Assembly (NCBI GenBank): GCA_041494705.1
Contig: JBGQBI010000006.1
Location: 60,001 to 92,000, forward strand
Reading direction: 5' to 3'
Length of the DNA stretch: 32,000 nt
Origin: Candidatus Methanoperedens sp.
Lineage (GTDB): Archaea > Halobacteriota > Methanosarcinia > Methanosarcinales > Methanoperedenaceae
Shown in pieces: positions 64 through 15,269 of this stretch (within the stretch, counting starts at the first letter, position 1; each line of letters opens with the position of its first letter). Position numbers and translations under genes: made by a program. The notes under the pieces are model-generated. The model was not told where the DNA came from, ran no database searches, and worked only from the letters and a program-made list of their open reading frames with translations.

Positions 64-354
64 CTATTCCTTATTAGTATCTAATAAGAGCAAAATACTT
101 ATAATTTCCGATACAGTTAAAAACAATTCAATGTTCAATCTGAGTTCCTTGAAAACCGGCCATGCCCCCAATTTCAATGAATTCCATGGCATTTTCTTCC
201 GACTATCAAATAAATCTTTTTTACCATTCCAAACATCCAATGGCGGCATCAGAGCAGCTAATATTCGATTTAAATCAGTATTTTTCCTTGAATTTGAGTA
301 AAGGTTATTCAGGCTAAAGAAATATTCGGACACACCGGATAGAACATTTATCAT
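64..354 (-). CDS. hypothetical protein (weak ORF)
   Basis: 96-aa ORF from the track in the AT-rich edge of the window. No motif or family recognised. May be spurious or a gene remnant. Confidence 0.25.
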   Translation of the reverse strand: MINVLSGVSEYFFSLNNLYSNSRKNTDLNRILAALMPPLDVWNGKKDLFDSRKKMPWNSLKLGAWPVFKELRLNIELFLTVSEIISILLLLDTNKE

Positions 355-402: not shown

Positions 403-1152
403 ATGGATATAAGATTTTATAAGAAACCGGAAATGACAAACCCACGAATGCTGGTCGGTCTTCCTGGTATGGGAATGGTTGCAAGGACTACTGTTAACTA
501 TTTTATAGAATTCTTAAAGCCGGAATTGTTTGCGGATATTCCGGTGCCTTATCTCTCGCCTTCAATTGCCTTTTTTGAGAAGGGCCTGGTAGTACCCGTG
601 GACAGGGATAAAAGCCCATTCAAGTTCTACTATTCACAGGAAAACAATCTCATACTGTTCTCTGGCGATATGCAAATTGGATATATCGCAAAGGATAATG
701 AACTCGCCGAAAAAATAATCGAAGCTGCGAAGCTTTGCGGGGTTGATACTGTTTATACGGTAATAGCAACGCAGGTAAAAAAATATGTTGAGGAACCGCA
801 GGTATTCGGGGTCGCAACATCACCTGAACTTCTTGAATTTTTAAAAAGTAAAGATGTGGAGATAGCGGATGGCAGCCTGCAGATAAGCGGGGTTAATGGA
901 CTTGTAATCGAATATGCAAAGCGCAATGGGATTAATGGAATATCCTTACTCAGCGAGACGGTTTTTCCTGATGCGCTGGATATAAAAGCATGTTATGCAG
1001 GGATAAAAAAGGTTTCGGAGCTTCTGGGAATTGAGATTGATATGAGCAGGATTGAGAGTGAAGCGAAGAAATTCGATGAAGGTTTTAAAAGGTATTTGAA
1101 AGAGATACAGGAAAAGAAGAGGAAAGAGGAGGATTTGGGGTATATTGGGTGA
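403..1152 (+). CDS. PAC2-family (proteasome assembly chaperone-like) protein
   Basis: N-terminal RMLVGLPGMGMVARTTVNYFIEFL matches the GLPGxGxVG signature of archaeal PAC2/DUF75 proteins. Size is about 250 aa, with a charged C-terminal tail. Confidence 0.7.
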   Translation: MDIRFYKKPEMTNPRMLVGLPGMGMVARTTVNYFIEFLKPELFADIPVPYLSPSIAFFEKGLVVPVDRDKSPFKFYYSQENNLILFSGDMQIGYIAKDNELAEKIIEAAKLCGVDTVYTVIATQVKKYVEEPQVFGVATSPELLEFLKSKDVEIADGSLQISGVNGLVIEYAKRNGINGISLLSETVFPDALDIKACYAGIKKVSELLGIEIDMSRIESEAKKFDEGFKRYLKEIQEKKRKEEDLGYIG

Positions 1153-1180: not shown

Positions 1181-1795
1181 TCACTTTCCCCTCTTATCCG
1201 GACACAGCTCACCAAGCATACACACTCCGCATTTCGGCCCCACAGGTCTGCATATATCCTGCCCGAACCTCACAAGTAGCTCATTGATATTGCGCCAGTG
1301 CTTCTTGGGGAGGATTTCGCGAAGTTTAATTTCTGTCTCTTCTGGTGATTTTGTGCTTACAAGCCCGAGCCTGTTTGAGATCCTGTGGACATGAGTATCC
1401 ACAGCAATCGCATCCTTGCCAAAGCCATAAACGAGAACACAATTTGCAGTCTTTCTGCCAACGCCCGGAAGTGAGAGCAATGTTTCCATATCATCCGGCA
1501 CCTTGCCCTTATAATCATTGCTGATTATCCGGGCTATTTCTTTTACTCGCGGCGCCTTTATGCGATAGAACCCGACTTCGCGTATCAATTCCTCAATGTC
1601 CGAAACATCGGCATGTGCAAGCGCCTCTGGCGTGCCATATTTAGCAAAGAGCTTCTCCGATGCCCTGTCCGTGACCTCATCGCGGGTGCGCTGGGAGAGG
1701 ACTGTGGCTATTAGCTGGAGAAAAGGGTCGCGTGAATTGAATTTGCCTGGAGGATAGCGGTTTTTAAGGCGGGAGATGATGAGGTCGATGGGCAT
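1181..1795 (-). CDS. nth: endonuclease III (DNA glycosylase/AP lyase, HhH-GPD family)
   Basis: Helix-hairpin-helix LPGVGRKTANCVL, catalytic Asp context AVDTHVHRI, and a C-terminal Fe-S loop CRPVGPKCGVCMLGELC (C-x6-C-x2-C-x5-C). Confidence 0.9.
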   Translation of the reverse strand: MPIDLIISRLKNRYPPGKFNSRDPFLQLIATVLSQRTRDEVTDRASEKLFAKYGTPEALAHADVSDIEELIREVGFYRIKAPRVKEIARIISNDYKGKVPDDMETLLSLPGVGRKTANCVLVYGFGKDAIAVDTHVHRISNRLGLVSTKSPEETEIKLREILPKKHWRNINELLVRFGQDICRPVGPKCGVCMLGELCPDKRGK

Positions 1796-1818: not shown

Positions 1819-2235
1819 TCAGGCTTCAATTAACTTCTCGATTGTCTCTGCGAACTCATACAGGTCATCAATATCCTCTTTCAGGTATTGGTAAGCTCTT
1901 GAATCATCCACCTTGCCATACCTGTGGACAAGGAGATTCCTGAAGCTGACCATATCCTCAAGACTGTTTGAGAGTTTTTTAGGGATTATTTTGTCATCGG
2001 CAATCTTTCGTATAGCATCCCTGTTATCCTTAGGAAGCCCCAGACTTTTTCCGGCGATTATCAGGTTGCATATATCGAGAATGTCCTCACAGGCAAGCTG
2101 GAAAGTTCTCTCGCAGGCTCTCCTCGTGCGGCGCTCCCCGATATATTCATCTTCTGTGTCAGGGATATCCTCATCAAGTTCAGCGATATAAACCAGAAGC
2201 TCACTCAATTTGTCTTTTATTCTCTCAACGTCCAT
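1819..2235 (-). CDS. hepT: HepT (DUF86/HEPN) RNase toxin of a type VII toxin-antitoxin pair
   Basis: 138 aa with the HEPN R-x4-H-x-Y motif (FRNLLVHRYGKVD). Its start is 1 nt after the stop of the upstream MNT gene. Confidence 0.85.
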   Translation of the reverse strand: MDVERIKDKLSELLVYIAELDEDIPDTEDEYIGERRTRRACERTFQLACEDILDICNLIIAGKSLGLPKDNRDAIRKIADDKIIPKKLSNSLEDMVSFRNLLVHRYGKVDDSRAYQYLKEDIDDLYEFAETIEKLIEA

Positions 2236-2236
2236 G

Positions 2237-2641
2237 TTAAATCCTTACTCTCCTGCTCATTTCCCTTAATACCTTGTTGTAATATTCCCTGTGTCGCCTG
2301 TAGCCTGCATATTCCAAGTCGTTTTCTTTGAGAAGAGTGAGCAGATGGTACATGTCCTTTGTGTAAAGCACTTTTCCTTCCTCTGAAATCCTTTTTCTAA
2401 TGTGAATCGGCAGTTCGTGGTACATCGAAATGTCCACACCCGATGGCATGGCGGAATCGATTGATAATCTCTCTCTCAGACTGAGTTCTTTTGAGGGGAT
2501 TATGCAGATATCAATATCTCTTCCGGTTTTTCCTCTTGCGCGCGAGCCGAAAAGCAGTATGCTGTGGATAAAGTCGAAGCTCTTCAGTATCTCGATAATT
2601 TTATCGGTTTTTGGTTCGGTTTTAGCGCCCATTGTTTTCAT
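2237..2641 (-). CDS. mntA: MNT minimal nucleotidyltransferase antitoxin
   Basis: LLFGSRARGKTGRDIDICI is the GS-x(n)-DxD motif of the pol-beta-fold nucleotidyltransferases. 134 aa, tightly coupled to hepT. Confidence 0.85.
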   Translation of the reverse strand: MKTMGAKTEPKTDKIIEILKSFDFIHSILLFGSRARGKTGRDIDICIIPSKELSLRERLSIDSAMPSGVDISMYHELPIHIRKRISEEGKVLYTKDMYHLLTLLKENDLEYAGYRRHREYYNKVLREMSRRVRI

Positions 2642-2828
2642 TTTTATGCTTATTTCCTCAATTAATACTGTTTAATTAACAATTACAATAATTCCTTTAT
2701 TATGTTAATAATCTTGCTCATAGACTTTCTCTGCCATACCGACGCGGTGCGCAGTCGATAAAATTTTAAATGTGCGGGTGTATTGGAGTAAGTGGTGCAA
2801 GTATTTGGTAGATAAAGATGAGATTCAT

Positions 2829-5642
2829 ATGGTGGCGGAGGGAGGAGAGTTCTTTCTTTATAAAAGAGAAATTCAGAAATTAGGAGAAATAATATCAGAG
2901 ATTGAAAAGCAAAAATCATATCGTATCTTTGGATATCTTTTAATACCTATCATACTTGGTTTTTTTGTTTTAAAGAACATAAATGAGAACATATTCATCT
3001 TAACAAAGAGAAGGGATGAATTAACACATAAGGTTATAAGTGAGATTGAAACCTCAAACCAGCAACTTAAAAATAATTTAAAATATCTAAAGGATGCAGA
3101 TACTTTTCTTATATACTCTGTTAGAGCAGATTTGCTGGGTAAACTCGAAGATTACGGAAGTATTCTTCATTATCTGAAACTAAAAAATGAAAACTTTGAA
3201 AAATCTTTCAATGATCTCATAGAAACTTCAATAAACGAAGTGATGTCATATAAAATTACAATAGAGAACTTTAACAAAGAATTGATCGAAACCTCAAACC
3301 AGCAATTTAAGAATAATTTAAAACATCTAAAGGATGCAGATACTTTTCTTATATATTCTGTTAGAGCAGATTTGCTTGGTAAACTCGAAGATTTCAGAAA
3401 TATTCTTCATTATCTGAAATCAAAAAATGAAAATTTTGAAAAATCTTTCAATGATCTCATAGAAACTTCAATAAACGAAGTGATGTCATATAAAATTACA
3501 ATAGAGAACTTTAACAAAGAATTGATCGAAAGACGCAAGAAAGAGTACGAGTTTCTTTTTAATAAATCAACCGTTGGTTTAAATGATGAGCAGAAAACAG
3601 CAATTATAACAGACGATAAGCATAATCTGGTAGTGGCAGGTGCAGGCTCAGGTAAAACAGAAGTTCTAATAACCAGAATCGCCTACCTTGCGCTAAGAAA
3701 ACAAGAAACTATAGCACCTAATAGGATACTTGCCTTAGCCTTTCAAAATAAGGCTGCAAAAGAAATTGAAGAAAGGCTCAACAAGAGGTTTGGAATAGAA
3801 GTTAAAATTAAGACATTTCATTCTTTTGGGCTTGAAGTTCTTACCAATGCTTCCAATGCTTCATCGAATCCAAAATTAAAATTTAATGGAGATAACTTCG
3901 AGTCTGGATACAATGAATTCATAGCAGGGCTCTATAAAAAAGCAGAAAAGGAATCTTCGTTTCAAAACAAACTTTTCGCTTATATGCTGTATTTTGGAGA
4001 TGACGAACTAATTAAACAGGAATCCGATTTTGAAAAGAAAGATGAATGGTATCAGTACATGCGAAATTTAGCATATACTGCTTTGAATGGAACAAAAGTA
4101 AAAAGCGAAGGAGAAAGAACAATACTTAACTTTCTGTTTACTCATAAAATAAATGAAAAATACATCAAAGTGCTTTATGAACATCCCGCAGGCTGGATGA
4201 ACTATAAAAATGAAAAAGGCGAAATAAAAACACCAAAACCAGATTTCTTCTTACCTGAATATAACATCTATATCGAACACTGGGCACTGGATGAGATGGA
4301 TAATGTTCCAAAATGGTTTGATCAAGATTACAAAAAAGGAATGAGCACAAAGATTGAGAGATTCAAACAACAAAAAAGGTATTCTCTTATAGAAACAACT
4401 TATGGGGAATTTAAACGTAAGAATTTTATCGAATATTTTGAGAAAAAATTAATTACGGAAATTAGAAGAAAGCATCCCAAAAAGGACGTTATTTTATCTT
4501 CAATAGGCTATTCCGAATTAGTCGATAGGATTTGGAAAACATGTAAAGAATCGATAGAACGAATTCCTAAAGACATTTCAATTTTTATCGTAAAAGCAAA
4601 AACAAACGGCTTAACACCTCAAAATATACATGAGAGACTTGAAAAAGAAAAGTGGTCCCCGAAACAGAAAGCTTTTGCTGAGTTGGCACTGATAATTTAC
4701 AGGGAGTATGAAAAAGAGCTTCGTCTAACAAACGAAATAGATTTTTCTGATATGATTAATCAAGCTGTAGTGGAATTGGAGAAGAATAAATCATTATATT
4801 CATTCGATCACATATTGATAGATGAGTATCAAGATATAAGTACGCAAAGATATCGACTTATTAAAGCGTTGATGGCTAAGAATCATAATTGTAAACTGTT
4901 TTGTGTGGGGGATGATTGGCAAAGTATTATGGGCTTTACAGGTTCAAATTTAGAGTTCTTTTTAAAATTTCAAGACTATTTTGACCATCCAGCGAGAACT
5001 GACTTATCCATCAATTACAGAAGTAATAAATCTATTGTAGATGCTGGAGCAGAACTTATAAAATATAACGGCGCTGCCCAACTTAAGAAACAAACAATAG
5101 CAAACAACAATGAAGAAAAGAGAATCATCGTTTTTTCATCCTTACACAAAAATATATGGGACTATTATCAACAAACTGCTGTCCATTGTGCAAATATGGT
5201 TATAGAATATCTCAATAATGGATATGCGCCTCAGGACATAATGATTTTGTATAGAATCACAAAACCTCCTTTAATTAACCAGCTTATTGATCATGCAAAA
5301 TTCAATAATGTTCCTATAAAGATAAATGCCCGCAATCCTCAATCAATCCCATTAATGTCGGTTCATAAGAGTAAAGGTTTACAAGCAAAAGTCGTATTTC
5401 TCCTATGTGTTGACAAAGGTTTGTATGGTTTCCCAAGCGAAATTGAAAACCCTTTGATATTTGAGCCTGCTATGGATAAAAGATACAACAATAAAGAAGA
5501 AGAGGAGAGACGACTTTTTTATGTAGCAATTACCAGATCGAAAGAAGATGTCATAATATACACTCAAAAAGAAAACGAAAGTATGTTTTTGAAAGAAATT
5601 CAAAAATATACGGAAATTAAAAATATAACTAATAATTCATGA
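2829..5642 (+). CDS. UvrD/Rep-family SF1 helicase, helicase IV-like, with N-terminal TM helix and duplicated coiled-coil module
   Basis: SF1 motifs: Walker A AGAGSGKT (3636-3659), DEYQD (4821-4835), VGDDWQSI, INYRS, SVHKSKGLQAKVVFL, RLFYVAITRSKEDV. A hydrophobic helix YRIFGYLLIPIILGFFVL lies near the N-terminus. A PDFFLP...IYIEHW segment (4239-4283) sits between motifs Ia and II. The track ORF starts at GTG 2772. I prefer ATG 2829 because a TATA-like TTTTAAAT (2764-2771) overlaps the GTG. Confidence 0.8.
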   Translation: MVAEGGEFFLYKREIQKLGEIISEIEKQKSYRIFGYLLIPIILGFFVLKNINENIFILTKRRDELTHKVISEIETSNQQLKNNLKYLKDADTFLIYSVRADLLGKLEDYGSILHYLKLKNENFEKSFNDLIETSINEVMSYKITIENFNKELIETSNQQFKNNLKHLKDADTFLIYSVRADLLGKLEDFRNILHYLKSKNENFEKSFNDLIETSINEVMSYKITIENFNKELIERRKKEYEFLFNKSTVGLNDEQKTAIITDDKHNLVVAGAGSGKTEVLITRIAYLALRKQETIAPNRILALAFQNKAAKEIEERLNKRFGIEVKIKTFHSFGLEVLTNASNASSNPKLKFNGDNFESGYNEFIAGLYKKAEKESSFQNKLFAYMLYFGDDELIKQESDFEKKDEWYQYMRNLAYTALNGTKVKSEGERTILNFLFTHKINEKYIKVLYEHPAGWMNYKNEKGEIKTPKPDFFLPEYNIYIEHWALDEMDNVPKWFDQDYKKGMSTKIERFKQQKRYSLIETTYGEFKRKNFIEYFEKKLITEIRRKHPKKDVILSSIGYSELVDRIWKTCKESIERIPKDISIFIVKAKTNGLTPQNIHERLEKEKWSPKQKAFAELALIIYREYEKELRLTNEIDFSDMINQAVVELEKNKSLYSFDHILIDEYQDISTQRYRLIKALMAKNHNCKLFCVGDDWQSIMGFTGSNLEFFLKFQDYFDHPARTDLSINYRSNKSIVDAGAELIKYNGAAQLKKQTIANNNEEKRIIVFSSLHKNIWDYYQQTAVHCANMVIEYLNNGYAPQDIMILYRITKPPLINQLIDHAKFNNVPIKINARNPQSIPLMSVHKSKGLQAKVVFLLCVDKGLYGFPSEIENPLIFEPAMDKRYNNKEEEERRLFYVAITRSKEDVIIYTQKENESMFLKEIQKYTEIKNITNNS
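3048..3527 (+). repeat. 2 x 240-bp intragenic tandem direct repeat (80-aa module duplicated)
   Basis: Copy 1 is 3048-3287 and copy 2 is 3288-3527. By eye there are about 11 mismatches in 240 nt, and the last ~100 nt are identical. Each copy encodes ETSNQQ[LF]KNNLK[YH]LKDADTFLIYSVRADLLGKLED...ENFNKELI. Confidence 0.9.
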
Positions 5643-5694
5643 AATACGAACCCACGTAACTTATTTTACCCCACACGGCATCTATCACAAAATA

Positions 5695-7806
5695 ATGACC
5701 ACAGAATGCACCGCCTGCAAAGGAACAGGCACTATCATCCTCAGCGAAAAGGAATGCCCCGACTGCAAGGGCTCAGGCAAGCCAAAAGCCATAAGCCTCG
5801 ATCAACTCTCTGAAAAAGACCTGGGAAAACTCATGGGAGGGGGCATAAAATGCGCAAAATGCCAGGGTACAGGTAGGATATCGGTCACCGAACCATGCAA
5901 GAATTGCGCCGGCAGGGGAAAGTTCTTCACATGCACCGTTTGCGGCAAGGAAACCACGAAAGGAGACCTCTGCGAGAGCTGCGCCAAAAAACCCCTTGTC
6001 CATGTCCTGAGCGCAGAATGCGACACGCGCGAGCTTGAGGTCGGGAAGGTTTACGAAGGAAAAGTGCAGGGGCATGCCAACTTCGGCGTGTTCGTTGACC
6101 TGAATCCACAGATTCGGGGGCTTATCCATTCAAGCAACATCAGTTTCCTCCCTGAAATCGGGGATAAGATATTCGTCGAAGTGAAAAACATAGCCCAGAA
6201 CGGCAACATCGAACTGCTCCCGAAGAGCCTGAAGGAATTCCAGCTAATCGAAGTCGAAAAACAGCTCCCGCGCCGAAAGACCACAGAACTCTCAAAATAT
6301 CTCGGCAAGCTCGTGCATCTCTCAGGCGAGGTAATACAGATAAAACAAACTGGCGGCCCCACGATATTCACAATCTCGGATGAGGATGGCACAGTGCAGT
6401 GCGCCGCTTTTGAGAAAGCAGGCGAGCGGGCATATCCTGAGATAAAGTCCGAGACCATCGTGAAGGTAATCGGTGAGCCCTCGATGAGGAACGGCGCCAT
6501 GCAGGTGGAGATACGCGCCATGAAGCAGCTATGGGGCGGGGATGCGACGGGCATCAAGGAGCAGATTGAATCAGCAATAGACAGGCGCGCAGAACCCCAC
6601 GATATCCAGTTCCTTGTAAAGAGCGAGGTACTGGAAAAGTTAAAACCAAGGATGCGAAACGCAGCCAAAATAATCAGGAAAGCGGTTTTCAAATCACGAC
6701 CTATAATCATAAGGCATCATGCGGACGCAGACGGGATTACCTCGGCAATAGCGATAGAACGTGCGCTCCTGCCGCTTCTTCGCGAAGTCGGAGGCTCTGA
6801 TGCAGACCGCCATTTCTACAGGCGCTCTCCTTCAAAGGCGCCATTCTACGAACTTGAGGACGTAACAAAAGACCTCACATTCGCGCTTGAAGACCAGGAG
6901 CGTTTCTCCCAGAAGATGCCGCTTGTGGTATTGATGGACAACGGCGCAACCGAGGAGGATATGCCTGCCATGAAACAGGCGATAATTTATGGCGTTGAAA
7001 TTTTGGTTATCGACCACCACCATCCCGACGGCACAATAGATTCCATGGTGCTCGAACACGTGAACCCTGCCTACGCTGGCGGGGATTTTGGCATAACTAC
7101 AGGGATGATAGGTACTGAGATAGCCCGAATGATAAATCCCGATATCGCAGAAGAGATTAAGCACCTCCCTGCCGTTTCAGCGGTCGGGGACAGGTCAGCC
7201 GCGCCTGAAGCAGAGCTTTATAAATCACTTGTAGCGGACAAATACAAACTCGAAGACCTCAAAAACATGGCGCTTGCAATTGATTACGAGGCTTTCTGGC
7301 AGAGGTTCAATGATGGACGGGGCATCATGAATGACATTCTCAATCTCGGTTCCAATATCCGGCATCAGCAGATAGTAAAATTATTGTGCGAGCAGGCAAA
7401 CGCCGCTATAACCGAGCAGCTTGAGGCGTCGATGCCAAATGTTAAAACCCAAAAACTGGCTAACGGCGCCATATTGAATGTAATAGATGTTGAAAATTTT
7501 GCCCACAAATTCACATTCCCCCCGCCTGGCAAAACAAGCGGTGAAATTCATGACCGCCTGTGCTCCCAGTACAGCGGGCAGCCCGTGGTCACCATCGGAT
7601 ACGGTCCTGATTTTGCAGTGCTGCGTTCAAAGGGCGTGAAGATGAACATCCCGCAGATTGTGAAAGAATTGCATAGCGAAATCAAAGGCGCTGGGGTGAG
7701 CGGTGGAGGTCATCTCGTGGTGGGCAGCATAAAGTTTGTGGAAGGCATGAGAAAAGAAGTGCTTGCAAAACTGGTTGAGAAAATAGGGGCGGCTGGGACT
7801 CAATGA
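5695..7806 (+). CDS. RecJ-like DHH/DHHA1 phosphoesterase with N-terminal DnaJ-type zinc-finger, S1 and OB-fold domains
   Basis: Four CxxCxGxG motifs (CTACKGTG, CPDCKGSG, CAKCQGTG, CKNCAGRG) plus CTVC...CESC. S1-like GKVYEGKVQGHANFGVFVDL. OB-like LSGEVIQIKQTGGPTIFTISDEDG. DHH motifs RHHADADGITS, LMDNG, VIDHHHP. DHHA1 motif GVSGGGH. Confidence 0.75.
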   Translation: MTTECTACKGTGTIILSEKECPDCKGSGKPKAISLDQLSEKDLGKLMGGGIKCAKCQGTGRISVTEPCKNCAGRGKFFTCTVCGKETTKGDLCESCAKKPLVHVLSAECDTRELEVGKVYEGKVQGHANFGVFVDLNPQIRGLIHSSNISFLPEIGDKIFVEVKNIAQNGNIELLPKSLKEFQLIEVEKQLPRRKTTELSKYLGKLVHLSGEVIQIKQTGGPTIFTISDEDGTVQCAAFEKAGERAYPEIKSETIVKVIGEPSMRNGAMQVEIRAMKQLWGGDATGIKEQIESAIDRRAEPHDIQFLVKSEVLEKLKPRMRNAAKIIRKAVFKSRPIIIRHHADADGITSAIAIERALLPLLREVGGSDADRHFYRRSPSKAPFYELEDVTKDLTFALEDQERFSQKMPLVVLMDNGATEEDMPAMKQAIIYGVEILVIDHHHPDGTIDSMVLEHVNPAYAGGDFGITTGMIGTEIARMINPDIAEEIKHLPAVSAVGDRSAAPEAELYKSLVADKYKLEDLKNMALAIDYEAFWQRFNDGRGIMNDILNLGSNIRHQQIVKLLCEQANAAITEQLEASMPNVKTQKLANGAILNVIDVENFAHKFTFPPPGKTSGEIHDRLCSQYSGQPVVTIGYGPDFAVLRSKGVKMNIPQIVKELHSEIKGAGVSGGGHLVVGSIKFVEGMRKEVLAKLVEKIGAAGTQ

Positions 7807-7961
7807 AGGTTAGTAATGCCTGCGTTGGCTGCGGCCAGTGCGCGGCTTATTGCCCATATGATGCGATAATAGTATTCGGGCGTGCCGGTATGAACGAAAA
7901 TTGTGTTGATTGCGGAACATGCGTCAAATATTGCCCGGTTTGTGCGATAGCGGAGGGGTGA
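7803..7961 (+). CDS. 2x[4Fe-4S] ferredoxin (52 aa), absent from the ORF track
   Basis: My translation: MKVSNACVGCGQCAAYCPYDAIIVFGRAGMNENCVDCGTCVKYCPVCAIAEG. It has two CxxCxxCxxxCP clusters. The ATG overlaps the upstream stop (ATGA at 7803-7806) and the TGA overlaps the downstream ATG (TGATG at 7959-7963). Confidence 0.8.
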   Translation: MKVSNACVGCGQCAAYCPYDAIIVFGRAGMNENCVDCGTCVKYCPVCAIAEG

Positions 7962-9190
7962 TGAAAGCAGCAATCATTGGCGCGGGTCTTGGCGGCTTAC
8001 TTTCCGGGGCAAAGCTCTCAAAAGCGGGATACGAAGTTGAGATTTTCGAGCGGTTACCTTTCATCGGCGGGCGGTTTGCCAATCTTGAATACAAAGGTTT
8101 CAAGCTGAGCACGGGCGCGCTTCACATGATACCTCACGGCTCGCGGGGACCGCTGGCACAGATGCTTAACGAAACTGGCGCCTGTGTAAAAATAATTGAT
8201 TCAAGCCCGATGGCTGTAATCAGGAAGGAAAATGGTGAAACAATCTCTTTTCGCGATTTCAGAAAAGAACTTTCACTCACACAACGCGTGAAACTTGGCA
8301 CGATACTTGCATATTCCCTTAAATTCAAGCCGAAAAGCAATATCTCCTTCAGGGACTGGATATTGAAATACTTTGATGAGGAATTCCTGTTGAAGCTTGC
8401 AGACTCTTTCTGCGGCTGGGCATTGAGCCTCCGGGCAAAGGATGTCCCGGCAAGAGAAATGCTTGAAATCATAAATAACATGTACCTGTATAAGGGTTCT
8501 GGAGTGCCTGCTGGTGGATGCGGTGCTGTAACCGGTGCCCTTGCCGAAATCATAAAGTCAAACAACGGGAAAATACATACCGGCACATGTGTGGATAAAA
8601 TAATCGTTGATAAGGAAAAAGCATGCGGCATAAGAGCAGGCGAAAAAACGATCGATGCAGACATTATTATCAGCGATATCGGGCATCCTGAAACAAGCAG
8701 GATGTATGATTGCAGGGATGAAGTGTATTTGGAGAGGATAAATAAAGCCAGGCCGTCAAAGGGAATCAAGATATGCCTTTCTTCGGATGAACCTCTTATA
8801 GGTCACAGCGGTGTCTTTTTCACGCCTTATACGGAGAGGATAAATGGCATAAACGAAGTGACCAATGCTGACCCGACCCTCGCGCCCCTGGGAAAGCATC
8901 TTATAATGTCGCACCAGGCTGTGATATCCGATGACCTGAACCAGGAAATCAATCTTGGGCTTCTTGACCTGAAAAGACTGTTCCCGGACAAAAAGTACGA
9001 GGTTCTTTTGGTACAGTCCTATTCTAATGGCTGGCCAGTGAATCGGGCATCCTCGGGAAGCGATATCGGAAGCCGGACGCCGGTTCAAAACCTGTATGTT
9101 GTGGGAGACGGAGCAAAGGGAAAGGGAGGGATTGAGGTTGAGGGTGTGGCGCTGGGGGTCAGGAATGTGATGAAGGAAATTGGGGTTTAA
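7961..9190 (+). CDS. FAD-dependent oxidoreductase (phytoene desaturase/amine oxidase-like superfamily)
   Basis: The start is revised to MKAAIIGAGLGGLLSGAKLSKAGYEVEIFERLPFIGGRF, the classic dinucleotide-binding GxGxxG...E...GGR. The track start at 7910 lies inside the ferredoxin ORF. C-terminal LYVVGDGAKGKGG. Confidence 0.75.
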   Translation: MKAAIIGAGLGGLLSGAKLSKAGYEVEIFERLPFIGGRFANLEYKGFKLSTGALHMIPHGSRGPLAQMLNETGACVKIIDSSPMAVIRKENGETISFRDFRKELSLTQRVKLGTILAYSLKFKPKSNISFRDWILKYFDEEFLLKLADSFCGWALSLRAKDVPAREMLEIINNMYLYKGSGVPAGGCGAVTGALAEIIKSNNGKIHTGTCVDKIIVDKEKACGIRAGEKTIDADIIISDIGHPETSRMYDCRDEVYLERINKARPSKGIKICLSSDEPLIGHSGVFFTPYTERINGINEVTNADPTLAPLGKHLIMSHQAVISDDLNQEINLGLLDLKRLFPDKKYEVLLVQSYSNGWPVNRASSGSDIGSRTPVQNLYVVGDGAKGKGGIEVEGVALGVRNVMKEIGV

Positions 9191-9798
9191 TGCTCTAAAA
9201 ATCTCTCACAGACCGCAAGGTCAGCCAGTGTATTAACGTTCAGCGCAAGCTCTTCATCATCCAGTATAAGATTATAATCCTCCTGCTCTTCATGTATCCT
9301 GCCAGCATCAAGGATATTTATCCCACATGGGACTATAAAGATTGAATTCTTATGAAAAACAGTATCGGGGCGAAGACCAAGCCTTGTGAAAACATCGAGG
9401 TTCATATGAACAGACAGCGCAGGCGTGCCGGCCTCGTTGTATTTTTCTATTATCCTGTCTATCAGTCCTGACGTAATAAGGGGGAGGTCTGCCATCATTA
9501 TAAAAACAGGTCCTTTGATTCTTGCTTTTTCAACTGCCATGACCATATCATGGACAAAACCTTCGCCTCCGGTCTCTATTATCCCCACTTTTTCATGTTC
9601 TTTCTTAAAATCACAAATCCAGCCAGTAGTTCTTTTCACCCTCGGCGAAGTCGCAACGAAAATGCGATCGATATTATGCGAGCCAAGGAGAGCATCCAGC
9701 ACATAATGGATAAGGGGTTTGCCAAGAAGAGACGTAAGAGGTTTTTCATCCTTCCCGAGCCGCTTTCCCATCCCGCCGGCCATCACAATAGCATCCAA
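9187..9798 (-). CDS. cobY: adenosylcobinamide-phosphate guanylyltransferase, archaeal type
   Basis: MDAIVMAGGMGKRLG..EKPL...FVATSP closely resembles archaeal CobY nucleotidyltransferases. It overlaps cobS by 16 nt and is last in the cobamide operon. Confidence 0.75.
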   Translation of the reverse strand: MDAIVMAGGMGKRLGKDEKPLTSLLGKPLIHYVLDALLGSHNIDRIFVATSPRVKRTTGWICDFKKEHEKVGIIETGGEGFVHDMVMAVEKARIKGPVFIMMADLPLITSGLIDRIIEKYNEAGTPALSVHMNLDVFTRLGLRPDTVFHKNSIFIVPCGINILDAGRIHEEQEDYNLILDDEELALNVNTLADLAVCERFLEH

Positions 9799-10550
9799 GC
9801 GAATCCTCCCATGAAAAGCAAAGCGGCAAGACGCCCTATCTCATTCGATGCGCCCACGACATCCCCGCTAACGCCCCCGAAATGGCGGTTTGCGGTATTG
9901 AGGACAAGCAGCCCTGCTAATTGGGATATTATTACCGCTTCAATACCAAAGACACCCATAAGAACATAACCAACCGCGCCTGAAAAAACCATTCCAATAA
10001 TAAAATCGGATTTTTTTGTATTATCCACTGTCATTGCACCGAAACCCTCATGCAGCCGCCTGCCAAAAGCTGCGACTGTGACCATGGACTGCTTTGCAGC
10101 AGTTTCTGCAACAATTAATGCAAACGGGAGAAACAGGGGCCGGGAATTTATTTCCGCAATGAAAAAAAGCACGGAGAAGATTCCAAGAATTGCCAGAATG
10201 CAAAACATCAAGCCCCCTGTGCCGATTGCGGTGTCGCGCATGGCAGCTATTTTTTTCTCTTTTGTGCCATGCGCAGCTATGCCGTCACCAAAATCAGCAA
10301 GCCCGTCGATGTGGTTGAATCCTGTAAAGTAGTAAATAGAGATAATAATTACAAATGAGGCAAGAACCGGCGGGAAAATCGCAGCTGATACAAGACCTAT
10401 CACAGCAAAGATAATACCCAGGACTGCGCCGACAAAAGGGAAAAGATAGATATGTTTCATCAGTTTCTCGATGCCTTCCATGGTGATACCTACCGGTATG
10501 GTGGTTAAAAAACCAAAACCATTACGGAGAGCAGATAAGAAATCCCTCAT
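9783..10550 (-). CDS. cobS: adenosylcobinamide-GDP ribazoletransferase (cobalamin synthase)
   Basis: Polytopic membrane protein with the N-terminal FLTTIPV motif and a DGLADFGDG segment typical of CobS. ATGA overlap with the upstream gene. Confidence 0.85.
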   Translation of the reverse strand: MRDFLSALRNGFGFLTTIPVGITMEGIEKLMKHIYLFPFVGAVLGIIFAVIGLVSAAIFPPVLASFVIIISIYYFTGFNHIDGLADFGDGIAAHGTKEKKIAAMRDTAIGTGGLMFCILAILGIFSVLFFIAEINSRPLFLPFALIVAETAAKQSMVTVAAFGRRLHEGFGAMTVDNTKKSDFIIGMVFSGAVGYVLMGVFGIEAVIISQLAGLLVLNTANRHFGGVSGDVVGASNEIGRLAALLFMGGFAWMLL

Positions 10551-13875: not shown

Positions 13876-13921
13876 GTATAAGGTGCCATTCTATGGTAAG
13901 ACAACAAATCGTTGTCGGGGC

Positions 13922-14221
13922 ATGAAAAATATGGTAGATATAAGAAATTTTGTATTAAGGGAAAAGAATGGAAACGAGACTGGAGTATTCACAGGTCATC
14001 AGCCGCGCCAGGCAGCATTGAAAGCAGCCAACCGCAGCAAAGGAACAAAATCAAAGCCTGTTGAACTAAGGCTTAGAGAGAGAGGAACTAAGAAGATTCA
14101 TGTATACAAGGGATGGACAGAAACAGTTGCAGCCCCCAAGAACAAACCAAAATGGATGCCTGCAAAAATCAACAAGCCGAATGTAAAGAAAGTAGGCGTT
14201 GAGCTGCTGGGTAAAATTTAA
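13922..14221 (+). CDS. chromosomal (chromatin) protein MC1
   Basis: RNFVLREKNGNETGVFTGHQPRQAALKAANR...LRLRERGTKKIHVYKGW...APKNKPKWMP closely matches the Methanosarcina MC1 sequence as I remember it. The track start at 13883 is a GTG inside the promoter. The true start is ATG 13922 or 13931. Confidence 0.85.
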   Translation: MKNMVDIRNFVLREKNGNETGVFTGHQPRQAALKAANRSKGTKSKPVELRLRERGTKKIHVYKGWTETVAAPKNKPKWMPAKINKPNVKKVGVELLGKI

Positions 14222-15195: not shown

Positions 15196-15269
15196 CGGGC
15201 TCGCTGGGATTTGAACCCAGGTCATAGGCTCCGGAGGCCCATGTACTATCCGGACTATACTACGAGCCC
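15196..15269 (-). tRNA. tRNA-Arg (anticodon CCG)
   Basis: Hand-folded cloverleaf. Acceptor GGGCTCG/CGAGCCC with discriminator G. D stem GTAT/GTAC. Anticodon stem TGGGC/GCCTA with loop CTCCGGA. T arm CTGGG-TTCAAAT-CCCAG. 74 nt, no encoded CCA. Confidence 0.9.

Follow-up and report, generated by a model that had tools for sequence, protein, structure and literature searches.

The stretch of DNA analysed here (the window, 32,000 nt) corresponds to positions 60,001-92,000 of the forward strand of contig JBGQBI010000006.1 from Candidatus Methanoperedens sp. (assembly GCA_041494705.1), and all coordinates are given within it. The gene under study encodes a helicase IV-like helicase of superfamily 1A (SF1A, UvrD/Rep-type), which lies between the genes for endonuclease III (nth) and the Hef-associated nuclease (HAN, archaeal RecJ-like) and next to a HepT/MNT toxin-antitoxin (TA) pair (Table 1). 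In its protein product, a short N-terminal tail is followed by a hydrophobic helix, a helical stalk and an ATP-driven motor that carries a predicted PD-(D/E)XK domain within subdomain 1B. The protein belongs to a widespread, uncharacterised branch of helicase IV-like UvrD/Rep helicases, whose members are labelled in the databases only as 'UvrD-helicase domain-containing protein' or 'DNA helicase IV'.

Table 1. Features of the helicase locus and its surroundings, in window coordinates
Feature	Coordinates	Strand	Evidence or remark
Helicase IV-like SF1A (UvrD/Rep-type) helicase	2805-5642	+	PF00580 1.1e-49; PRK11054 297.5 bits
Conserved helicase upstream region	2744-2804	+	Almost unchanged between the window, L002 and L003
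N-terminal hydrophobic helix (YRIFGYLLIPIILGFFVL), putative single-pass membrane anchor	2919-2975	+	Kyte-Doolittle 2.06
Stalk helical-hairpin module of 240 bp (80 aa), duplicated in tandem	3044-3531	+	Tandem Repeats Finder (TRF): period 240, 2.0 copies, 95% match
Walker A (motif I), AGAGSGKT	3636-3659	+	Invariant in the 63-sequence alignment
Predicted Vsr / endonuclease I-like PD-(D/E)XK-fold domain, in subdomain 1B	4029-4418	+	Residues ~401-530 of the 937-aa form
Motif II (Walker B), DEYQD	4821-4835	+	Invariant or near-invariant in 63 homologues
HepT toxin, 138 aa	1819-2235	-	PF01934 1.9e-28; NF047751 108.9 bits (cutoff 60); RNLLVHRY
MNT (MntA-like) nucleotidyltransferase antitoxin, 134 aa	2237-2641	-	PF18765 1.7e-14, 54.2 bits (cutoff 26.9); GSRARG...DIDIC
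PAC2	403-1152	+	Open reading frame (ORF) list
Endonuclease III (nth)	1181-1795	-	PF00730 2.2e-29; 50% G+C; dN/dS ~0.10
Hef-associated nuclease (HAN, archaeal RecJ-like)	5695-7806	+	NF053577 747 bits; 51% G+C; dN/dS 0.02-0.03

Three start codons are available to the helicase gene, namely TTG at 2805 (945 aa), ATG at 2829 (937 aa) and GTG at 2772 (956 aa). The TTG is the likely start, since it is aligned with the annotated MVDQDE... start of orthologues and lies downstream of a conserved AT box. This box, GATAAAATTTTAAAT (2757-2771), is a candidate archaeal TATA element with a presumed promoter function, and it is located inside the conserved upstream region, to the left of which the sequence differs or is replaced in the relatives L002 and L003. 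With respect to the motor, Pfam assigned both PF00580 (170 bits, cutoff 23) and PF13361 (63.6 bits, cutoff 25.6), and the best NCBIfam model was that of helicase IV, PRK11054, at a score below its equivalog cutoff of 543. No Pfam match to Helicase_IV_N was obtained in residues 1-250 beyond sub-threshold noise. An earlier note on this DNA had described a UvrD/Rep helicase of 937-956 aa with all SF1 motifs and, in fact, motifs I, Ia, II, III, IV, V and VI are all present; AGAGSGKT, DEYQD, GDDWQSI, NYRS, HKSKGLQ and VAxTR were found to be invariant or near-invariant in an alignment of 63 homologues. The AlphaFold2 (AF2) model of the full protein reached a pLDDT of 87.4 and a pTM of 0.78, and a Foldseek search with it retrieved UvrD, PcrA and RecB only, UvrD and PcrA (E 6e-21) being the best matches among solved structures. 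When a genome collection was scanned with the full-length alignment, generic motifs (DDWQSIM, ILxDEYQD) dominated, and mostly distant helicase IV-like genes were recovered.

Between motifs Ia and II, the protein is longer than PcrA by ~210 residues and longer than E. coli helicase IV by ~180. The insertion had previously been put at ~300 aa, with a nuclease-like fold; the fold was supported by the searches described below, but the size proved to be only ~180-210 residues, of which the nuclease-fold core takes up ~130. Only two regions of the helicase are better conserved than this core (58% mean identity across the family), whose conserved residues are K425, S426, E429, Y450-E451, P471-D472-F473, E483-H484-W485, P494, W496, K508 and E522. 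S426, E429, E451, D472, F473, E483, H484, P494, W496 and K508 were invariant in the 63 sequences, and K425, Y450 and W485 were present in at least 90% of them. Thus, the three putative metal-binding acids, E429 in helix-1, D472 in strand-2 and E483 in strand-3, are all invariant.

Modelled alone, the domain showed an alpha-beta-beta-beta-alpha-beta topology (AF2, pLDDT 93). Sequence searches of Pfam and PDB with the insert gave nothing significant, and Foldseek found no match to it among solved structures at E<=1e-3; the weak structural list from PDB was composed almost entirely of PD-(D/E)XK enzymes, including the R2 restriction-like endonuclease (RLE), AbaSI/PvuRts1I, RecE, Vsr and cap-snatching endonucleases. 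The PADLOC models HEAT_CxxC_PD-DEXK (1.2e-9) and PDC-S69 (1.5e-6) matched the insert, and 29 matches at E<=1e-3 were obtained in BFVD, a collection of predicted viral structures, those with names including Endonuclease I, DUF559, VSR endonuclease, TnsA N-terminal domain, and homing and restriction endonucleases; a DUF2726 protein fell just above the cut-off. Additionally, an hhalign comparison of the insert with a phage nuclease bearing the canonical ExK gave a probability of 85.5%. By its predicted structure, the insert has a PD-(D/E)XK fold and is closest to the Vsr / endonuclease I type, and K425...E429, D472 and E483-H484-W485 appear to map onto the Vsr/AbaSI pattern.

When 1.84 billion representatives of clusters at 50% identity were searched with a profile built from the insert, 1,806 clusters matched at E<=1e-3, of which 782 did so at <=1e-10, and most of these matches lay inside helicases of 750-1,600 aa. 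The earlier suggestion that helicase IV relatives share the insert holds for many helicase IV-like proteins, but not for E. coli helicase IV itself, which is without it. The profile also recovered stand-alone phage relatives (L096, L097), which match resolvase/endonuclease families of PHROG and keep the canonical WIE(I/V)K. Prompted by the model name HEAT_CxxC_PD-DEXK, the HEAT-repeat proteins of the Methanoperedens locus L185 were searched for the insert domain, and no match was found.

Near the N-terminus, the segment IFGYLLIPIILGFFVLKNI attains a Kyte-Doolittle value of 2.06 over 19 residues, while the rest of the helicase does not exceed ~1.1. The hydrophobic segment proposed previously is thereby upheld, and it is also maintained in the family, given that 74 of 111 full-length homologues carry a segment of at least 1.6 at the equivalent place, though its sequence drifts. 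The flanks of the helix contain more Lys and Arg on the C-terminal side (4.2) than on the N-terminal side (2.9). The richer C-terminal flank fits an N-out/C-in topology with the motor in the cytoplasm, and the helix is likely a membrane anchor.

Residues 1-245 are all helical; the stalk has helices at 94-170 and 176-239 in the AF2 model and is the least conserved part of the helicase (30% mean identity). The duplicated 80-aa module reported earlier was recovered by TRF; it lies between the anchor and the motor, in exact register. The duplication is present in L002 and L003, and absent from L181 and from L180, the closest relative, whose protein is 93% identical. Because it may be present or absent among such close relatives, the stalk is, from these sequences, of polymorphic length. 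In L002 and L003 the repeat occupies 8231-8718 and 8205-8691, respectively. It was also observed that the two copies in the window are 95% identical, versus ~87-91% for most orthologous regions between genomes, and that the closest relative has a single copy where the more distant L002 and L003 have two, which suggests either that the module has been duplicated and lost repeatedly or that gene conversion has acted on its two copies.

The composition of the gene differs from that of its surroundings. In 500-nt bins, the G+C fraction was 0.27-0.35 across 2751-5750 versus 0.44-0.53 on both sides, and outside this tract every 1-kb bin of the window had at least 38% G+C. The helicase gene has 31.4% G+C and 28% at third codon positions (GC3), versus 46% for the remaining window, whereas HepT (44%) and MNT (42.5%) are host-like. 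Therefore, of the AT-rich block that had been delimited at 2683-5650, the AT-rich tract is real but corresponds to the helicase gene alone. A value of ~31% was found in every Methanoperedens copy measured.

The gene order nth, helicase, HAN is common to five Methanoperedens genomes (the window, L002, L003, L180 and L181), of which L002 and L003 align collinearly to the window with ~90% nucleotide identity (87-89% for the helicase). Both nth and HAN are core genes and form the left and right borders of a variable interval. In three more distant genomes the helicase is absent from it: in L183 (M. nitroreducens) and L184 neither nth nor the helicase is found beside HAN, and in L185 the interval holds nth, VapBC, a 32%-G+C CxxC protein, an orphan MNT and two HEAT-repeat proteins before HAN is reached. 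Because the content of the slot differs in this way among the more distant genomes, the nth-HAN interval is a variable hotspot for accessory genes, with the helicase as one of its alternative cargoes and L185 as a second low-G+C cargo set. In L185, this cargo spans 1999-5949, the CxxC protein has the form CxxCxxCC, and an N6/N4 methyltransferase and RE_MjaI restriction system of 33% G+C follows just after HAN (8186-10059). Two further Methanoperedens loci, L004 and L182, carry a 74-75% identical helicase at unrelated positions, with 30.5% G+C in L004.

Between orthologues, the synonymous divergence (dS) of the helicase was 0.17-0.46, similar to the 0.23-0.61 of the flanking genes, and its ratio of non-synonymous to synonymous divergence (dN/dS) was 0.18-0.26, versus 0.02-0.12 for the flanks. 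The helicase is an accessory, compositionally foreign and faster-evolving gene that is nevertheless selectively maintained. As for the horizontal acquisition put forward in the earlier note, the foreign composition and the variable slot between core genes speak for it, but the arrival was not recent, since the similar dS indicates inheritance together with the flanks; it took place in the ancestor of a single Methanoperedens sub-clade.

Elsewhere, 80 metagenome loci recovered with the insert profile provided 362 neighbours in 293 clusters, and no partner gene was conserved across them. Pfam and PADLOC scans of the 147 neighbours located within two genes of the helicase identified PLDc_2/DrmC-like proteins (5), Fic/SoFic (3), DpdF (3), and HepT-like, nucleotidyltransferase, DruE, mad2 and HNH proteins (2 each), counts that stand without a background rate. 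Relatives were also located on haloarchaeal and Acinetobacter plasmids, beside insertion sequence (IS) elements, integrases and TA genes. This pattern is that of a solitary accessory gene, with surroundings that are in many cases, though not in all, of a defence or mobile kind.

At some of the sampled loci, the helicase has a nuclease-like neighbour. In L085, L114, L116, L125 and L149, the directly adjacent gene encodes a nuclease of the PLD family (PLDc_2, DrmC-like) that ends in a zinc ribbon; that of L085 (7270-7980) is co-directional and lies 20 nt upstream of the helicase. Such pairs may represent an optional two-gene variant, reminiscent of helicase and PLD defence pairs. In L130 (1744-2388), L154 (3165-3794) and L169, the helicase adjoins a zinc-ribbon protein of ~200 aa that has a stand-alone copy of the nuclease-like domain with a lysine-less WIEFWG (E-F-W). 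Two scanned neighbours matching PADLOC PDC-S69 at 3e-44 are probably these zinc-ribbon proteins.

Several known systems share part of this architecture. E. coli helicase IV (HelD) has in common with the window protein the SF1A motor, the GDDWQSI motif III and the C-terminal half, with 33% identity over residues 642-941 and 30% over 248-431 (BLASTP; the alignment starts at 248). However, HelD lacks the ~180-aa nuclease-fold insert, the hydrophobic N-terminal helix and the stalk, all of which are found in the window helicase. Helicase IV-like proteins of plasmids and of contigs classed as viral (WP_329777040.1 of the Acinetobacter pittii plasmid pAR3676_2; L088-L095) carry the insert, as PDF...IE(H/Y)(W/F/Y), at the equivalent position of the motor; these relatives, of ~30% identity, have a different N-terminus without the hydrophobic helix and often bear C-terminal topoisomerase-type zinc ribbons. 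Among nucleases, Vsr, DUF559, AbaSI-PvuRts1I and T7 endonuclease I resemble the insert in fold and in motif order, in which an acid in helix-1 is followed by PD in strand-2 and by an acid, His and aromatic residues in strand-3. Unlike them, the insert is embedded in a helicase subdomain, its likeness emerges only in profile or structure comparisons, and its catalysis is putative.

In RecB and AddA, too, a single polypeptide combines an SF1 motor with a PD-(D/E)XK nuclease, but there the nuclease is C-terminal and the enzymes work in multi-subunit complexes, whereas the nuclease fold of the window helicase is internal. Hhe, listed in the PADLOC and DefenseFinder catalogues, is a single-gene defence protein in which an SF1B/Upf1-like helicase is joined to a terminal Vsr-like endonuclease; the insert gave no match to Hhe in PADLOC at E<=1. 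GajB of Gabija is UvrD-like and its models were the top PADLOC matches (1.3e-56), through the generic motor only. Its partner GajA (OLD/TOPRIM) is not adjacent to the window helicase, whose neighbours are MNT/HepT, nth and HAN, nor is it among the 25 most frequent of the 251 PADLOC families matched by the 147 neighbours. In the literature searched, nothing was found on this family or on PDC-S69, nor was any role of helicase IV-like proteins in virus defence or any SF1 helicase with a membrane anchor described. Fusions of helicase and nuclease are well known, and what sets this protein apart is the possible membrane tether together with a lysine-less nuclease fold inside subdomain 1B.

Considering these features, we give a probability of roughly 0.5 to the reading that the protein works without a partner as a helicase-nuclease on foreign or broken DNA and is probably tethered to the membrane, with a role in defence suggested by its context. 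In such a mechanism, the hydrophobic helix would hold the enzyme on the cytoplasmic side of the membrane in the N-out/C-in orientation, and the motor would load on DNA ends or 3' tails and translocate 3'->5' like its relatives. The nuclease-fold domain, at the 1B position that contacts the duplex or fork, could then nick or cleave the DNA being unwound by means of a Vsr/AbaSI-type active site, with K425 and E429 at the first helix, D472 in strand 2 and E483-H484 in strand 3, and with W485 acting as a wedge. As an outcome, the lone protein would degrade linear or entering foreign DNA (virus, plasmid) or process broken DNA near the envelope. A bolder version, which we regard as doubtful, would make it the prototype of a single-gene membrane-tethered immunity factor that, held at the inner membrane face by its length-variable stalk, captures the free end of entering viral or plasmid DNA, unwinds it and cuts it with the Vsr-like domain, self and non-self being told apart by location and DNA ends rather than by sequence or modification.

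Some observations weigh against the helicase-nuclease reading. First, the canonical ExK lysine is missing, being replaced by E-H-W in the window protein; in the 150 best representative clusters, the lysine position is likewise aromatic in the form of E-H-W (104) or E-H-F (16). Nucleases of the Vsr type are also without the motif lysine, and in them His64/His69 are positioned as the proposed general base and Phe67-Trp68-His69 form a wedge into the DNA, while AbaSI recruits an essential Lys from a loop before the first helix (PMC4081097). Therefore, the missing lysine does not by itself exclude activity. The missing lysine led us to consider a dead nuclease remnant, which was rejected as the default in view of the high conservation and of the Vsr/AbaSI precedent. 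It may also be that the insert domain only binds DNA. In addition, many of the 147 neighbours are housekeeping enzymes. The remaining difficulties concern the anchor and the stable inheritance of the gene, and they are best considered with the alternatives that they favour.

Concerning the anchor, the hydrophobic helix might be a buried oligomerisation element of a soluble oligomeric helicase rather than a membrane span, an alternative that we hold to be unlikely without dismissing it. A G..P...G pattern (G-x-x-x-P-x-x-x-G-like) is conserved within the segment and could mark a protein-protein contact, and an approximate Hessa-type additive estimate of the insertion energy was marginal, with a median of ~+0.45 kcal/mol. 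Moreover, the segment is missing in about a third of the close homologues and in most distant ones, all else being kept; in the wider insert-bearing family, only 20 of 91 full-length representatives have the helix. However, the Kyte-Doolittle values of 2.0-3.6 over 19 residues stand well above the classical threshold of 1.6, it is the hydrophobicity and not the sequence that is conserved, and the flanking charges show the positive-inside bias, all of which speaks against a buried contact.

A rather unlikely alternative is that of a housekeeping repair or recombination helicase, the archaeal counterpart of helicase IV, which would act at stalled forks or breaks with nth and HAN and would use the nuclease fold to bind or nick DNA in a structure-specific manner. 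The stable inheritance of the gene within its clade, in five genomes between the same two DNA-repair genes, fits such a role, as do the purifying selection (dN/dS ~0.2), the best NCBIfam match to helicase IV and the housekeeping genes that surround the helicase in L182. A repair function is harder to reconcile with the absence of the gene from the interval in three Methanoperedens genomes, that of M. nitroreducens among them, with its foreign-looking G+C and GC3, with a non-synonymous evolution 2-10 times faster than that of the flanks, and with a patchy phyletic spread that includes plasmids; furthermore, outside this clade neither nth nor HAN adjoins the helicase. The synteny of the nth/RecJ-like junction, whose comparison had been recommended in the earlier note, thus shows a gene that is not universal.

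Even less probable is that the helicase is remnant cargo of a mobile element (a plasmid, a virus or another low-G+C extrachromosomal element of Methanoperedens) and serves the replication or maintenance of that element instead of the host. The 31% G+C of all Methanoperedens copies, the relatives on plasmids and on contigs classed as viral, and the other low-G+C cargo in the L185 hotspot would be expected of such an origin. Nevertheless, within the window the helicase is not flanked by an integrase, by repeats, by a tRNA target or by other genes of an element, the helicase is a lone gene in most loci, and purifying selection has acted on it over ~0.4 synonymous substitutions per site.

The neighbouring HepT/MNT pair is an ordinary type VII TA member, unrelated to the helicase. 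As in known HepT/MntA modules, the family motifs are present (RNLLVHRY fits Rx4HxY in HepT, and GS...DxD is found in MNT), the antitoxin gene is immediately upstream of the toxin gene and the spacing is tight, with a gap of 1 nt, in agreement with the tight coupling that had been pointed out before. Against the MntA equivalog NF047752, MNT scored 39.8 bits, below the cutoff of 60. The pair is complete in the window and in L180; L003 retains MNT alone, as does L185, in which the helicase is absent and MNT is 86% identical to that of the window, and neither gene occurs in L002 and L181. The orphan MNT genes (L003, 7375-7812; L185, 3586-3993; 83-86% identical to the window MNT) both lie inside the nth-HAN interval, and it seems that, once the toxin is lost, the antitoxin-type nucleotidyltransferase persists on its own. 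In L002, the place of HepT/MNT is taken by a 194-bp segment (7746-7939) with an inverted repeat of CACAGAG-type units (CACAGAGCGCACAGAGGACACAGAGC ... CTCTGTGCTCTCTGTG), which could be a small mobile or terminator-like element.

The earlier note had joined the pair and the helicase into one islet; such a co-regulated defence islet with a shared divergent promoter would account for the divergent arrangement 130-190 bp apart, for the equal arrangement in L180 and for two other helicase loci with a HepT-like and a nucleotidyltransferase neighbour, but it is largely refuted and very improbable, given that the helicase and its upstream box are kept where the TA pair (L002, L181) or HepT (L003) is absent, that MNT occurs without the helicase in L185, that the G+C is 43-44% in the pair versus 31% in the helicase, and that the survey of co-occurrence found HepT-like proteins in only 2 of the 147 neighbours. 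Additionally, BLASTP of the window HepT and MNT against the neighbours at the 80 loci returned no match. Because of its host-like G+C, its independent variation among relatives and these few HepT-like neighbours, the pair is an independent, strain-variable module that shares the hotspot by chance and is not functionally coupled to the helicase. The case also cautions that a TA pair adjoining an odd gene does not make a system.

Other features were noted in the window. A second low-G+C stretch (34%) occupies 1-500, upstream of PAC2, and holds a 96-aa ORF (64-354, minus strand); its identity to L002 is only 77%, versus ~90% for the adjoining genes. A 78-aa ORF at 2683-2919 on the minus strand, antisense over the helicase start and the intergenic region, is probably spurious. 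Farther away, a small and very basic ORF of 112 aa (13883-14221, plus strand), in a stretch of 40% G+C, resembles by eye the archaeal chromatin protein MC1, and a tRNA gene at 15196-15269 (minus strand; RF00005, 62.4 bits), not adjacent to the helicase locus, is the sole Rfam match of the window.

The locus documents a variable nth-HAN hotspot in Methanoperedens. Fusions of helicase and nuclease have a central part in the processing of DNA ends and in several anti-virus systems and, if both the anchor and the nuclease of the protein described here are functional, its family would add a location-based recognition of incoming DNA. It would also provide a testable candidate in archaeal methane oxidisers, about whose defence repertoire little is known.

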